Origin: Escherichia coli
Lineage (GTDB): Bacteria > Pseudomonadota > Gammaproteobacteria > Enterobacterales > Enterobacteriaceae
NCBI RefSeq assembly: GCF_030013205.1
Contig: NZ_CP122648.1
Reading direction: 5' to 3' (one strand)
Length of the DNA: 64,000 nt
Position 1 is the stretch's first letter. Every line of letters begins with the position of its first letter. Positions 36,813 through 58,962 of this stretch are shown here, piece by piece. The notes below the pieces were generated by a model, which was not told the origin of the DNA, did not search any database, and was given only the letters and a program-made list of their open reading frames with translations. Position numbers and translations under genes: made by a program.

Positions 36813-36853
36813 TGCCGCCTTTTCCCCTCACCCTAACCCTCTCCCCAGAGGAG
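36813..36853. repeat. GC-rich palindromic intergenic repeat unit (possibly boxC family; name uncertain)
   Basis: cccctcaccctaaccctctccccagaggagcgaggggaccgatcg; near-identical units recur at 55990..56035 and inverted at about 56100..56140. Confidence 0.6.
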
Positions 36854-36893
36854 CGAGGGGACCGATCGCGCTCAATGTTGCGATCGGTTTGCC

Positions 36894-46992: not shown

Positions 46993-47065
46993 TCATTAAT
47001 CGGCAACTTTGGGTTGCCGCCAAATTGCTAATATCGAGTACGTTGCTTCATGCCGGATGCGGCGT

Positions 47066-47822
<757 letters not shown>

Positions 47823-47926
47823 ATCAGCATACTTGTCCTTAGCCTTCTGCAGTGACAGCTGGTAGTACAGCGTGCTTCTGGCCAGCCCTGCAGCCTTTAA
47901 CAGGTCAGACTGGCAGTGTCCGCACC

Positions 47927-48457
47927 TCAGGCTCCGGATGACTTTCGTTTTTTCTCCAGCTCCTGGCGCTTTTTTTCCAGGAGATGCTCCTGCATGGCTT
48001 TCAGATATGCATTTTCTGCGCGAAGATAACGCAGCTCATTCTTCATCTCTTCCGGCGTCATGTTTGCCTCGTTTTCATGGGTATCATCAGAACGGGTCAT
48101 GCTTTTCTCCTTCCTGCGCCTGATAAAGGCCTCATTACCAGATTTGCGGTAGCCTTTTATCCAGTTTTTAACCGTGTTGTGGCTGGGAATGTTAAACCGG
48201 GCAGCTACCCGGGGTAGAGACTCAGAATGCCCGAGAGCATAAAGAACCACGCAAAGTTTATCTTCAGGAGAATAGCTACGCTTGTGTCTGCAATCCAGTG
48301 CCCGAGGACCGTGAAGAAGAAAAAGATTAATCCAGTGTGAGAGGCTGGTGTGAGAAAGTTGAAAGAGTTTTGCCGTAGAAATGATGCCTGCATGACCGGC
48401 CAGGTAATGATTTACAGCGGCAAGTTTTACTTCAAATGAATGTTTCATAAACTGCAC
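47927..48457 (-). CDS. insJ: IS150 orfA (InsJ), helix-turn-helix protein
   Basis: 176-aa ORF (alternative start 48448) matching InsJ as recalled. Confidence 0.9.
   Translation of the reverse strand: MQFMKHSFEVKLAAVNHYLAGHAGIISTAKLFQLSHTSLSHWINLFLLHGPRALDCRHKRSYSPEDKLCVVLYALGHSESLPRVAARFNIPSHNTVKNWIKGYRKSGNEAFIRRRKEKSMTRSDDTHENEANMTPEEMKNELRYLRAENAYLKAMQEHLLEKKRQELEKKRKSSGA
47969..47977 (-). promoter_or_regulatory. programmed -1 ribosomal frameshift site A-AAA-AAG of IS150
   Basis: Heptamer in the orfA frame (ctg gaa aaa aag cgc); shifting -1 here joins orfA to the orfB frame, which reads directly into MKQLIASIF... Confidence 0.7.
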
Positions 48458-48500
48458 CTTCAGATGTCAGATTGTGTCCAACATTTGGGGTGCAGTTCAG

Positions 48501-53557: not shown

Positions 53558-54271
53558 ATGGAAAAAGTCATGTTGTCCTTTGACAAAGTCAGCGCCCACT
53601 ACGGCAAAATCCAGGCGCTGCATGAGGTGAGCCTGCATATCAATCAGGGCGAGATTGTCACCCTTATTGGCGCGAACGGGGCGGGGAAAACCACCTTGCT
53701 CGGCACGTTATGCGGCGATCCGCGCGCCACCAGCGGGCGAATTGTGTTTGATGATAAAGACATTACCGACTGGCAGACGGCGAAAATCATGCGCGAAGCG
53801 GTAGCGATTGTCCCGGAAGGGCGTCGCGTCTTCTCGCGGATGACGGTGGAAGAGAACCTCGCGATGGGCGGCTTTTTTGCCGAACGCGACCAGTTCCAGG
53901 AGCGCATAAAGTGGGTGTATGAACTGTTTCCACGTCTGCATGAGCGCCGTGTTCAGCGGGCAGGCACCATGTCCGGCGGTGAGCAGCAGATGCTGGCGAT
54001 TGGTCGCGCGCTGATGAGCAACCCGCGTTTATTGTTGCTTGATGAGCCATCGCTCGGTCTTGCGCCGATTATCATCCAGCAAATTTTCGACACCATCGAG
54101 CAGCTGCGCGAGCAGGGGATGACTATCTTCCTCGTTGAGCAGAACGCCAACCAGGCGCTGAAGCTCGCTGATCGCGGCTACGTTCTGGAAAACGGTCATG
54201 TGGTGCTCTCCGATACCGGCGACGCGCTGCTGGCAAATGAAGCGGTGAGAAGTGCGTATTTAGGCGGGTAA
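53558..54271 (+). CDS. livF: branched-chain amino acid ABC ATPase
   Basis: 237-codon frame MEKVMLSFDK... with Walker A GANGAGKTT. Confidence 0.92.
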   Translation: MEKVMLSFDKVSAHYGKIQALHEVSLHINQGEIVTLIGANGAGKTTLLGTLCGDPRATSGRIVFDDKDITDWQTAKIMREAVAIVPEGRRVFSRMTVEENLAMGGFFAERDQFQERIKWVYELFPRLHERRVQRAGTMSGGEQQMLAIGRALMSNPRLLLLDEPSLGLAPIIIQQIFDTIEQLREQGMTIFLVEQNANQALKLADRGYVLENGHVVLSDTGDALLANEAVRSAYLGG

Positions 54272-54299
54272 TAACACGTTGATTGATAAGGAGTCAAAA

Positions 54300-54440
<141 letters not shown>

Positions 54441-54531
54441 TGAGCAATCTGTAGAGTTTGATTCAGACCTTCTATTTTTCCCGCTTATCCGTGCCCCATC
54501 TCCCATTTTCCCTCACCCACGCCGTCACCGC

Positions 54532-54550
54532 CTTGTCATCTTTCTGACAC
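54532..54550 (+). promoter_or_regulatory. candidate PhoB binding site (pho box) in the ugpB promoter
   Basis: cttgtcat cttt ctgacac resembles two CTGTCAT direct repeats with 4-nt spacing, about 120 bp upstream of ugpB. Confidence 0.5.
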
Positions 54551-54668
54551 CTTACTATCTTACAAATGTAACAAAAAAGTTATTTTTCTGTAATTCGAGC
54601 ATGTCATGTTACCCCGCGAGCATAAAAAGCGTGAATTCGCGCATTCGGTACAACAAGAGAGATAAACG

Positions 54669-55985
54669 ATGAAACCGTTACATTATACAGCTTCAGCACT
54701 GGCGCTCGGACTGGCGTTAATGGGGAATGCACAGGCAGTGACGACCATTCCGTTCTGGCATTCTATGGAAGGGGAACTGGGTAAAGAGGTGGATTCTCTG
54801 GCCCAACGTTTTAACGCCGAAAACCCGGATTACAAAATTGTACCGACCTATAAAGGCAACTACGAACAGAATTTAAGCGCGGGGATTGCCGCATTTCGTA
54901 CCGGCAACGCGCCTGCTATTTTGCAGGTTTATGAAGTTGGCACCGCCACCATGATGGCGTCGAAAGCCATTAAACCGGTGTATGACGTGTTTAAAGAGGC
55001 GGGGATTCAGTTCGATGAGTCGCAGTTTGTGCCGACGGTTTCAGGCTATTACTCCGACAGCAAAACCGGCCACTTACTCTCCCAGCCGTTCAATAGCTCG
55101 ACTCCTGTTCTCTATTACAACAAAGACGCCTTCAAGAAAGCGGGGTTAGACCCGGAACAGCCGCCGAAAACTTGGCAGGATCTGGCGGACTATGCCGCAA
55201 AACTGAAAGCCTCCGGCATGAAGTGCGGCTACGCCAGCGGCTGGCAGGGCTGGATCCAACTGGAAAACTTTAGCGCCTGGAACGGTCTGCCGTTTGCCAG
55301 CAAAAACAACGGCTTTGACGGCACGGACGCGGTGCTGGAGTTCAACAAGCCGGAGCAGGTGAAACACATCGCCATGCTCGAAGATATGAACAAGAAGGGC
55401 GACTTCAGCTACGTCGGTCGTAAGGATGAATCCACCGAGAAGTTCTATAACGGTGATTGCGCGATGACCACCGCCTCTTCTGGTTCTCTTGCCAATATTC
55501 GTGAGTACGCCAAATTCAACTACGGCGTAGGTATGATGCCTTACGACGCCGATGCGAAAGATGCGCCACAAAACGCCATTATCGGCGGAGCCAGCCTGTG
55601 GGTGATGCAGGGCAAAGATAAAGAAACGTATACCGGCGTGGCGAAGTTTCTCGACTTCCTCGCGAAGCCAGAAAACGCTGCCGAGTGGCATCAGAAAACT
55701 GGTTATCTGCCAATCACCAAAGCGGCGTATGACCTGACCCGTGAGCAGGGTTTTTATGAGAAAAACCCAGGGGCGGATACCGCGACGCGTCAGATGCTGA
55801 ATAAGCCGCCGTTACCGTTCACCAAAGGGCTGCGTCTGGGCAACATGCCGCAGATCCGCGTGATTGTGGATGAAGAGCTGGAGAGCGTGTGGACCGGTAA
55901 GAAGACACCGCAGCAGGCGCTGGATACCGCCGTTGAGCGTGGGAACCAGTTACTGCGCCGCTTTGAGCAGTCTACGAAGTCTTAA
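54669..55985 (+). CDS. ugpB: periplasmic sn-glycerol-3-phosphate-binding protein
   Basis: 438-aa ORF with signal peptide. Confidence 0.93.
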
Positions 55986-55989
55986 TTCT

Positions 55990-56140
55990 CTTACCCTCAC
56001 CCTAACCCTCTCCCAAAGGGAGAGGGGACCGATCGGCGTGGTATCCAGGTGCCGTGTCGGTTTGCAACTTCGCTCGGTGGGAAAGTATGCACCGCCTTTC
56101 TCCCTCGCCCCTCTGGGGAGAGGGCCGGGGTGAGGGGAAC
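55990..56140. repeat. inverted pair of GC-rich palindromic repeat units in the ugpB-ugpA spacer
   Basis: ccctcaccctaaccctctcccaaagggagagggg at the left and ctccctcgcccctctggggagagggccggggtgagggg inverted at the right, about 65 bp apart; same unit as 36813..36853. Confidence 0.65.
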
Positions 56141-56160
56141 ACAACACGAAGAGTTTAACT

Positions 56161-57048
56161 ATGTCATCATCCCGTCCGGTGTTCCGCTCGCGCTGGCTGC
56201 CCTATTTGCTGGTCGCGCCGCAGCTCATCATCACCGTTATCTTTTTTATCTGGCCTGCGGGCGAAGCGTTGTGGTACTCGCTGCAAAGCGTCGATCCGTT
56301 TGGTTTCTCCAGCCAGTTTGTCGGCCTGGATAACTTCGTCGCGCTGTTTCATGACAGCTACTATCTCGACTCCTTCTGGACGACGATAAAATTCAGCACC
56401 TTTGTTACCGTCAGCGGTTTGCTGGTGTCGCTGTTCTTCGCGGCGCTGGTGGAGTACATCGTGCGCGGCAGCCGTTTCTATCAAACCTTGATGCTGCTGC
56501 CGTATGCCGTGGCTCCCGCCGTTGCCGCCGTATTGTGGATCTTCCTGTTTAACCCTGGTCGCGGGCTGATCACCCATTTTCTCGCTGAGTTCGGCTACGA
56601 CTGGAACCACGCGCAAAACAGCGGTCAGGCGATGTTTCTGGTGGTGTTTGCCTCGGTGTGGAAGCAAATCAGCTACAACTTTCTGTTCTTCTATGCCGCG
56701 CTGCAATCCATTCCCCGTTCGTTGATCGAAGCCGCAGCCATCGACGGTGCAGGGCCGATTCGCCGCTTCTTTAAAATTGCTCTACCGCTTATCGCTCCGG
56801 TGAGTTTCTTCCTGCTGGTGGTGAACCTGGTGTACGCCTTCTTCGATACCTTCCCGGTGATCGACGCCGCCACGTCCGGCGGGCCGGTTCAGGCCACCAC
56901 GACGCTGATTTATAAGATCTACCGCGAAGGCTTTACCGGACTGGATCTGGCTTCGTCTGCCGCGCAGTCGGTGGTGTTGATGTTCCTCGTCATCGTGCTG
57001 ACGGTGGTGCAGTTCCGCTATGTTGAAAGCAAGGTGCGTTACCAATGA
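56161..57048 (+). CDS. ugpA: glycerol-3-phosphate ABC permease
   Basis: 295-aa hydrophobic ORF. Confidence 0.93.
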
Positions 57049-57890
57049 TTGAGAACCGTCCGTGGCTGACGATATTCAGCCATACCATGCTGATCCTCGG
57101 GATCGCGGTGATCCTCTTCCCGCTGTACGTGGCGTTTGTCGCGGCGACGCTGGATAAACAGGCCGTCTACGCCGCGCCGATGACGCTCATCCCCGGCCCA
57201 CATCTGCTGGAAAACATCCATAACATCTGGGTGAACGGGGTAGGCACGAATAGTGCGCCTTTCTGGCGGATGTTGCTTAACAGCTTTGTGATGGCGTTCA
57301 GCATTACGCTCGGCAAAATTACCGTCTCGATGCTCTCGGCATTTGCCATTGTCTGGTTTCGTTTTCCGCTGCGTAACCTCTTCTTCTGGATGATTTTTAT
57401 TACTCTGATGTTGCCGGTTGAAGTGCGTATCTTCCCGACGGTGGAAGTCATCGCCAACCTGAAGATGCTCGACAGCTACGCCGGTTTAACGCTGCCGCTG
57501 ATGGCCTCGGCGACCGCCACGTTTCTTTTCCGCCAGTTCTTTATGACGCTGCCGGATGAGCTGGTGGAAGCGGCGCGGATCGACGGTGCGTCACCAATGC
57601 GCTTCTTTTGCGACATCGTTTTTCCGCTCTCCAAAACTAATCTGGCGGCGCTGTTTGTGATCACCTTTATTTACGGCTGGAACCAGTATTTGTGGCCGTT
57701 GTTGATTATTACCGACGTGGATCTCGGCACCACCGTGGCAGGGATTAAAGGGATGATCGCCACAGGCGAAGGCACAACGGAATGGAACTCGGTGATGGCG
57801 GCGATGTTGTTAACCCTGATCCCACCAGTAGTGATTGTTTTAGTGATGCAGCGTGCCTTCGTGCGCGGCCTGGTCGATAGTGAGAAATAA
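57045..57890 (+). CDS. ugpE: glycerol-3-phosphate ABC permease
   Basis: 281-aa hydrophobic ORF, 4-nt overlap with ugpA. Confidence 0.93.
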
Positions 57891-57891
57891 G

Positions 57892-58962
57892 ATGGCAGGA
57901 CTGAAATTACAGGCAGTAACCAAAAGCTGGGATGGCAAAACCCAGGTCATTAAACCGCTGACCCTTGATGTGGCGGATGGCGAATTTATCGTGATGGTCG
58001 GGCCGTCTGGCTGCGGGAAATCGACGTTATTGCGAATGGTGGCCGGACTGGAGCGGGTAACGACGGGCGATATCTGGATCGACCGCAAGCGTGTCACCGA
58101 AATGGAGCCGAAAGATCGCGGGATTGCGATGGTGTTCCAGAACTACGCGCTCTATCCGCATATGAGCGTAGAGGAGAACATGGCGTGGGGGCTGAAAATT
58201 CGCGGCATGGGCAAGCAACAAATTGCCGAACGTGTTAAAGAAGCGGCGCGCATTCTGGAGCTGGACGGCCTGCTTAAGCGCCGCCCGCGTGAGCTATCTG
58301 GCGGTCAGCGTCAGCGTGTGGCGATGGGGCGTGCGATTGTGCGTGAGCCGGCAGTGTTCCTGTTTGATGAGCCGCTCTCTAACCTCGATGCCAAGTTGCG
58401 CGTACAGATGCGTCTTGAACTGCAACAGCTGCACCGTCGCCTGAAAACGACTTCACTCTACGTTACTCACGATCAGGTTGAGGCGATGACGCTCGCCCAG
58501 CGAGTAATGGTGATGAACGGCGGCGTTGCCGAACAGATTGGCACGCCAGTTGAAGTCTACGAAAAGCCCGCCAGCCTGTTTGTGGCGAGTTTTATTGGCA
58601 GTCCGGCGATGAATCTGCTGACAGGCCGCGTGAATAATGAAGGCACGCATTTTGAACTGGACGGCGGTATCGTGCTACCGCTAAACGGTGGCTACCGTCA
58701 GTATGCCGGGCGTAAAATGACTCTCGGCATTCGCCCGGAACATATTGCGCTAAGCTCGCAGGCAGAAGGCGGCGTACCGCTGGTGATGGACACGCTGGAG
58801 ATCCTCGGCGCAGATAACCTGGCGCACGGACGCTGGGGCGAACAGAAGCTGGTGGTGCGACTGGCGCATCAGGAGCGCCCGACGGCAGGCAGCACGCTGT
58901 GGCTGCATCTGCCGGAAAATCAGCTGCATCTTTTTGATGGTGAAACAGGACAACGAGTATGA
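57892..58962 (+). CDS. ugpC: glycerol-3-phosphate ABC ATPase
   Basis: 356-codon frame [11 protein letters not shown]... with Walker [10 protein letters not shown]. Confidence 0.93.

Follow-up and report, generated by a model that had tools for sequence, protein, structure and literature searches.

A BoxC-type inverted pair in the ugpB-ugpA spacer of a minority of Escherichia coli genomes, and its possible role in protecting the ugpB message

Introduction

What occupies the gap between ugpB and ugpA in this Escherichia coli genome, and could it matter to the mRNA that runs through it? The ugp operon is a phosphate-scavenging transporter operon of E. coli, and in the DNA studied here (the window, a stretch of 64,000 nucleotides of contig NZ_CP122648.1) a BoxC pair lies in the ugpB-ugpA gap. 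The REP hairpins between malE and malF represent an established mRNA-stabilising mechanism, in which the upstream binding-protein cistron is protected. A preliminary description of the window had proposed that a pair of palindromic units in the ugp spacer could act in the same position. Binding-protein cistrons in ABC transporter operons are also known to be stabilised by 3' protective structures (PMC5927463).

BoxC (Bachellier et al.; Hoyne and Maher 2000, 2002; Holder et al. 2015, PMC4666352) is a GC-rich palindromic enterobacterial repeat, which was later re-described as PIT (potential intrastrand triplex) and then as TMECO (PMC4666352), and which also appears in the list of PMC2267715. A unit of 34-37 nt consists of three blocks of 9-10 nt in the order CCCTC(T/G)CCC, loop, GGGAGAGGG, 3-nt loop, GGGTGAGGG; units with TTA in the second loop are called type A and those with CCG type B, and inverted pairs always join an A to a B (PMC4666352). 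Strain MG1655 has 23 units, with two inverted units at each of five sites (PMC4666352). The authors of that work saw no sign of a general regulatory role for the TMECO elements, and found no association with transposons, phages or plasmids.

Results

The spacer and its neighbourhood

The following genes and intervals define the locus.

54669-55985, plus strand: ugpB, periplasmic sn-glycerol-3-phosphate binding protein, TAA stop at 55983-55985 (open reading frame list; RefSeq annotation of identical genomes)
55986-56160, plus strand: ugpB-ugpA intercistronic spacer, 175 bp, the minority 'BoxC allele'
56161-57048, plus strand: ugpA, permease gene (open reading frame list; RefSeq)

Since ugpB ends at 55985 and ugpA starts at 56161, positions 55986-56160 are exactly the 175-bp intercistronic spacer. 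Downstream of ugpA the ugpE, ugpC and ugpQ genes are intact. The segment 55700-56450 is 100% identical to that of CFSAN018748 and of a group of swine ETEC/O139:H1 genomes, and the RefSeq annotation of the identical genomes places no feature between ugpB and ugpA. The small open reading frames that run across the spacer were rejected as artefacts of the repeats (RefSeq annotates none). A gathering-mode Rfam scan of the whole window gave no meaningful family at the spacer, and the K-12 REP allele likewise gave none; the only match of the spacer in an evalue-mode scan of 54000-58000, Whalefall-1 (17.7 bits, E = 0.46), was taken as chance. Neither the units nor the pair is represented by an Rfam family.

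Elsewhere in the window, between livJ and panM (approx. 47050-48500), about 1.4 kb is absent from E. coli O104:H4. Two minus-strand open reading frames lie there, one of 176 aa that encodes HTH transposase domains and another of 240 aa that encodes an rve integrase core, and the layout read from them is that of a putative IS3-family insertion sequence.

Two BoxC units of different subtype form the inverted pair

Three units of the family and the centre of the spacer pair were delimited as follows.

55994-56027, minus strand: left BoxC/PIT/TMECO unit, type A of Table 1 in PMC4666352 (TTA loop in the minus-strand reading), core without mismatch
56028-56101, plus strand: central variable region of the composite, opening with the conserved extension GACCGATCGGCG and closing with CACCGCCTTTCT
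56102-56137, plus strand: right BoxC/PIT/TMECO unit, type B with one mismatched triplet (CCG loop), core without mismatch
36824-36859 (to 36871 with the extension), minus strand: solo BoxC/TMECO type A unit in the convergent tusA-zntA gap, corresponding to K-12 TMECO 16

On the mRNA strand, the left unit is read as Y1 (55994-56002), TAA, Y2 (56006-56014), AAA and R2 (56018-56027), that is CCCTCACCC-TAA-CCCTCTCCC-AAA-GGGAGAGGGG. The right unit consists of Y2' (56102-56111), TCT, R2 (56115-56124), CCG and R1 (56127-56137), that is CCCTCGCCCC-TCT-GGGGAGAGGG-CCG-GGGTGAGGGG; its type, 'B mm', is that of K-12 TMECO 18, from which a single loop base differs. The 21-nt core GGGAGAGGG-NNN-GGGTGAGGG was found with 0 mismatches at both spacer units and at one more site of the window, as against 0.02 in shuffled sequences, thus the pair is real and non-random. 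The block symmetry that a purine-motif triplex requires is present in the units.

The inverted arms of the pair extend over 42 nt with 71% complementarity, including a perfect outer block of 9-10 bp, and the composite of the two units covers 144 of the 175 nt of the spacer. The whole composite, arms and centre together, is homologous to TMECO 17+18 between lldD and trmL of K-12 (71% over 146 nt). The blocks CCCTCACCC and GGGTGAGGG are outermost in the ugp pair, an arrangement shared by only one of the five K-12 pairs, again the lldD-trmL one (Table 1 coordinates, PMC4666352). The extension of the central region is common to the solo unit at 36824-36871 and to the K-12 lldD-trmL pair. In the tusA-zntA gap, the solo unit carries an extension, GACCGATCG, identical to that of the left ugp unit.

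With TTA on the minus strand at the left and CCG at the right, the spacer pair follows the A+B pairing rule of PMC4666352. Judged from its letters, the occupant of the spacer is almost certainly an inverted BoxC (PIT, TMECO) pair, one unit of type A and one of type B, with the outermost blocks facing outward. The preliminary description had recognised a repeat of about 35 bp in two opposite orientations, each copy a local hairpin, and this part holds; the distance between the units is 74-75 nt rather than about 65, the pair leaves part of the spacer unfilled, and the supposed two copies of one unit are two catalogued subtypes, distinguished as A and B by their TTA and CCG loops. Neither the membership in the known BoxC/PIT/TMECO family nor the status of a minority allele had been noticed. 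That the unit is repeated across the genome was borne out, the spacer query matching each genome at a median of 3 places and at most 8, beside the 23 copies counted in MG1655 (PMC4666352).

The unit family and the pair architecture are already known, and the novelty lies in the locus, in the position inside an operon and in the fact that the pair alternates with a REP pair, both within E. coli and among the Enterobacteriaceae. Compared with the K-12 BoxC/TMECO catalogue, the three-block sequence, the subtypes A and B, the inverted A+B pair and the intergenic site are alike. The ugp locus, however, is absent from the catalogue, the 74-nt centre of its pair is long, and the pair lies inside an operon, while only TMECO 19 is listed mid-operon in K-12. 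According to our own count from Table S2 of PMC4666352, 16 of 18 K-12 BoxC loci are 3' of a gene, seven being between convergent genes and only two between divergent ones, and the unit is nearer to the upstream stop than to the downstream start codon in eight of the nine co-directional cases. One K-12 BoxC in the same table lies inside pstSCAB-phoU, 19 nt after pstA.

A large RNA domain is predicted between the two cistrons

Two features of the predicted transcript are needed here.

55994-56137, plus strand: predicted RNA domain of 144 nt, closed by a G+C-rich outer Y1:R1 stem of 10 bp (55994-56003 with 56127-56136)
56148-56153, plus strand: probable Shine-Dalgarno sequence of ugpA, GAAGAG, 7 nt before the ATG at 56161 and outside the hairpin, read from the sequence

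The spacer RNA was predicted to fold with -84.4 kcal/mol (z = -4.65), and none of 200 shuffled sequences folded as well; a second fold gave -83.9 kcal/mol (z = -4.2). Eight nt separate the domain from the ugpB stop, and 23 nt lie between its end and the ugpA ATG. The large composite stem-loop that had been suggested is strongly predicted, its outer stem (55994-56002 with 56128-56136) having a pairing probability of 0.99-1.0. The interior can be drawn in two nearly isoenergetic ways, either as one long hairpin (-83.9 kcal/mol) or as two local hairpins and central stems inside the outer stem (-82.9 kcal/mol). The local hairpins amount to -16.8 to -18.4 kcal/mol for the left unit and -15.7 kcal/mol for the right one.

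A comparison of 11 composites (10 taxa or loci) shows an outer helix that is 100% paired throughout, in which one A-U has become U-A by compensatory change and one wobble is present. The single compensatory pair is probably one event. Since the family is so conserved, covariation is minimal, and selection on the RNA and maintenance of the palindrome are inseparable in it. Among the E. coli carriers of the BoxC allele four substitutions were found, which fall in a loop or in the centre or produce a G-U pair.

A terminator scan of 55700-56400 returned 0 sites with a hairpin and a U-run, AACACAACACG being what follows the stem, and a scan for sigma-70-like promoters at the spacer found none. Without a terminator-like U-run, read-through into ugpA is expected. 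The mean unpaired probability of the ugpA Shine-Dalgarno sequence is 0.53, versus 0.41 in the K-12 allele, so it is about half accessible in both. Sequestering of this site by a 5-bp CUCUU:AAGAG helix between the ugpB stop region and the Shine-Dalgarno sequence was considered and rejected; the helix is present in the minimum free energy structure but it is unstable in longer context, and inspection by eye showed no conservation of it among other BoxC alleles.

In most E. coli strains the site is occupied by a REP pair

The BoxC-type spacer was found in 317 of 5426 complete E. coli genomes (about 6%). In the remaining 94%, K-12 included, the region is 79 bp shorter and contains a REP pair. The K-12 spacer, of 97 bp, is non-homologous to the BoxC allele from the base after the stop to the ATG, and it consists of two inverted REPs, TGTCGGATGCGTTTCGCTTATCTGACC and GTAGGCCGGATAAGCGAAGCGCATCCGGCA, the second of which resembles the REP of the window at 54398-54432. 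Its hairpin was calculated at -50 kcal/mol (z = -6.66), beginning about 10 nt after the stop and ending 21 nt before the ATG. Both E. coli alleles therefore have the same layout, namely stop, 8-11 nt, a long hairpin, 21-23 nt and ATG, and the earlier proposal that the spacer pair sits in a REP-type position is supported by the true REP pair found there in K-12 and 94% of the species.

The REP consensus (GCCGGATG...CATCCGGC stem, GTAGGCC tail) was not found anywhere in 55986-56160. On the other side of ugpB, the livF-ugpB gap (54332-54432) holds two inverted REPs, TGCCTGATGCGCTGCGCTTATCAGGCCTAC and GTAGGCCGGATAAGGCGTTTACGCCGCATCCGGCA. Weak, sub-threshold Rfam matches to naRNA4 (REP-type) and ES036 appeared only at 54315-54438. 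The same strain thus has REPs beside ugpB and a BoxC pair after it.

Each of the 316-317 carriers in RefSeq has the 175-bp form, altered by a few substitutions at most. The GenBank strain E. coli E69 has a 221-bp BoxC form with a centre longer by 46 nt; this form is absent from the 5426 RefSeq complete genomes. Centre length also varies among taxa. The REP allele is found in E. albertii too, which makes REP the probable older state at ugpB-ugpA in Escherichia.

Over more than 20 kb, the window diverges from K-12 and O104:H4 by 2-5%, and no block stands out as locally divergent. This even divergence speaks against a short foreign import around the spacer, and places the allele in a generally diverged lineage. 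An excess of differences was seen only at the end of ugpB, where the final 45 nt (55940-55985) have 6-7 differences from K-12 against a background of about 3%, among them GAG-CAG-TCT where K-12 has GAG-AAA-TCG (Lys to Gln); the Gln codon is found in Klebsiella, Enterobacter and related genera. As a post hoc reading of the letters, these differences may have been left by a very short recombination tract that carried the spacer in. Across genera, variants of the coding flanks showed no association with allele type.

The ugpB-ugpA spacers of other enterobacteria

A UgpB scan with one genome per species gave 80 loci, from which 78 spacers were extracted, and with that of the window 79 were analysed. 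BoxC pairs or BoxC-type long hairpins occur in Pseudocitrobacter, Superficieibacter, Phytobacter, Klebsiella oxytoca, an Enterobacter MAG, Pluralibacter, Kluyvera, Leclercia and one more Enterobacteriaceae isolate. REP pairs are present in K-12-like E. coli, E. albertii, Salmonella, Citrobacter, other Klebsiella and Enterobacter, and Lelliottia. Other repeats or unique hairpins, sometimes with a T-run behind them, were seen in Pectobacterium, Serratia, Yersinia, Erwinia and others. Within one genus, unrelated repeat families occupy the spacer in at least five cases (Escherichia, Klebsiella, Pseudocitrobacter, Superficieibacter and Leclercia).

Folding the 79 spacers as RNA gave a median z of -4.1 relative to dinucleotide shuffles, with values under -2 for 82% of them; in 72 spacers the 15 nt that follow the ugpB stop contain the start of a helix of 5 bp or longer. 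Thus the constant element is a strong structure just after ugpB, while the sequence family that supplies the structure is variable.

Some spacers show how the elements combine. In Lelliottia sp. WAP21 (L025) and in a Leclercia adecarboxylata MAG (L034) one BoxC unit is nested in a REP pair, flanked on either side by about 20 additional nt, and in the former the second REP is without its left half; the sequences suggest that BoxC units insert independently. In Superficieibacter electus (L010) and Kluyvera (L026) the centre of the composite is internally duplicated and contains a degenerate third unit, in spacers of 308 and 218 bp, respectively, and from such sequences the BoxC composite appears modular and expandable. 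Three spacers of Serratia and Ewingella (L067, L072 and L080) have in common a different repeat of approx. 130-150 bp (…GGCTACTGCGCTTCGCCAGTCTGGGATTGGGCAGTGCTCG…), which looks like a separate MITE-like family in the same slot.

Discussion

We regard a BoxC pair with a barrier role favouring ugpB as the best overall explanation of the locus, and on the present analysis give it about an even chance of being right. The pair would be transcribed within the ugpBAECQ mRNA and would fold into the 144-nt domain. After an endonucleolytic cleavage downstream, 3'-to-5' exonucleases would halt at the base of the stem; the ugpB segment would in consequence outlive ugpAEC, and more binding protein than membrane components would be made. 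As the stem has no U-run, transcription would go on into ugpA, the ribosome-binding site of which would stay outside the stem. In this way the BoxC pair would do the work of the REP pair found at this place in most E. coli. This exonuclease-barrier mechanism, taken by itself, is put forward with a little less than even confidence. Among the papers searched, there were no transcript, decay or protein data on ugp or on the BoxC allele and no paper linking ugpB to REP, and broader searches on ugpB with REP or stem-loops and on processing of the pst operon brought nothing relevant.

The identical architecture of the REP allele, the conservation of structure independently of repeat family, and the placement of BoxC throughout its family support a barrier role. 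Against it stands the consideration that excess predicted structure in the spacers is equally expected from parked palindromic repeats. The minimal covariation also counts against it, as do the earlier functional tests of PIT elements, in which transcription was unaffected, and the view in PMC4666352 that the elements have no general regulatory role. The presence of two alleles in one species fits functional equivalence and irrelevance equally well.

Comparison with known systems points to likenesses and differences. The ugp pair resembles the REP/BIME elements of malE-malF and of the K-12 ugp spacer in its position 3' of an ABC binding-protein gene, in its spacing and in being a GC-rich hairpin without a U-run, but it has no sequence similarity to REP, and it is roughly twice as long and by prediction more stable. 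With the structures described by Dar and Sorek (2018, PMC5927463) it shares a stable predicted fold at the 3' boundary of a cistron that should be needed in excess; most of those structures, however, are unique sequences lying within the downstream coding sequence, and ugp is not among the operons reported. The MITEs (ERIC/IRU, NEMIS/Correia, RUP) are similar in length (about 145 bp), in their imperfect terminal inverted repeats, in the long RNA hairpin and co-transcription, and also in presence/absence variation and nested insertions, whereas BoxC has no known partner transposase and no association with mobile elements (PMC4666352). Target-site duplications were not visible at the ugp or the lldD-trmL junctions, where the comparison allele is a differently filled site and not a clean empty one.

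It is quite possible, if not what we would expect, that what is parked in this permissive site is a neutral or selfish repeat, that the gap tolerates any palindrome, and that there is no selected role in ugp. The turnover of the spacer among unrelated repeat families, even within a genus, and the nesting of a BoxC unit in a REP pair in L025 and L034 are explained by parking, and REPs are found in the adjoining livF-ugpB gap as well; BoxC loci are variable among E. coli strains and no function has been found for them (PMC4666352). Parking explains less well that taxa in which no repeat is recognisable keep a unique hairpin just after ugpB (Pectobacterium, Atlantibacter, Pluralibacter gergoviae, Shimwellia and Entomohabitans). 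It also leaves aside that only one of the 79 spacers is as short as 30 nt and that the spacing from stop to hairpin to ATG is equal in both E. coli alleles.

An action at the DNA level, in which single-stranded units form intrastrand triplexes or cruciforms, stall replication and make the locus a rearrangement hotspot without any part being played by the RNA, seems improbable. Triplex formation by TMECO oligonucleotides and a block to DNA polymerase by PIT elements have been seen in vitro, and the TM/BoxC loci are unusually variable and more rearranged among E. coli strains (PMC4666352). The DNA fold of the spacer is also exceptional (-41.3 kcal/mol, z = -4.29), and the locus is polymorphic, with REP, 175-bp BoxC and 221-bp BoxC alleles. 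In vivo footprinting, however, was negative for the triplex, and double-stranded TMECO stays duplex (PMC4666352). The carriers in RefSeq share the single 175-bp form, so the locus is stable within the lineage, and instability as a property of the element would not explain why a hairpin is retained at ugp.

It is very improbable that the hairpin, rather than stabilising the message, lowers ugpB translation by stalling the terminating ribosome or partially terminates transcription: its base is 8 nt from the ugpB stop, REPs less than 16 nt from a stop are reported to lower translation (Liang et al. 2015, as cited in PMC12306157), and a hairpin with a T-run is present in the spacers L039, L041, L044 and that of Pectobacterium, but less binding protein would be contrary to the usual stoichiometry of ABC importers, the BoxC stem lacks a U-run, earlier tests of PIT elements gave neither promoter nor terminator activity nor an effect on RNA polymerase (as related in PMC4666352, where no test of mRNA stability is mentioned), and both effects are compatible with a barrier role, not exclusive of it.

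Returning to the BoxC pair as a protective structure, a wider reading would be that selection keeps a strong hairpin after ugpB while the filler is repeatedly replaced, by REP, BoxC, MITE-like or unique sequences, the BoxC pair being a working stabilising or decoupling element. This is a tentative proposal, which we consider rather unlikely to hold in full. If it is true, it would give the first physiological role to BoxC/PIT, which has been functionless on record since the 1990s.

The BoxC/PIT/TMECO elements are conserved and widespread, and the published links concern only triplex formation in vitro and variability among strains. At ugpB-ugpA, E. coli provides a natural allele swap at one locus, 94% REP against 6% BoxC. 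Since a BoxC pair is found at a REP-type site, where it alternates with a real REP pair in one species, a clean test is possible. If BoxC proves unlike REP, the locus would be one more parked repeat. If BoxC acts like REP, this would be the first answer to what BoxC is for, and intercistronic hairpin slots would become a recognisable feature of operons.
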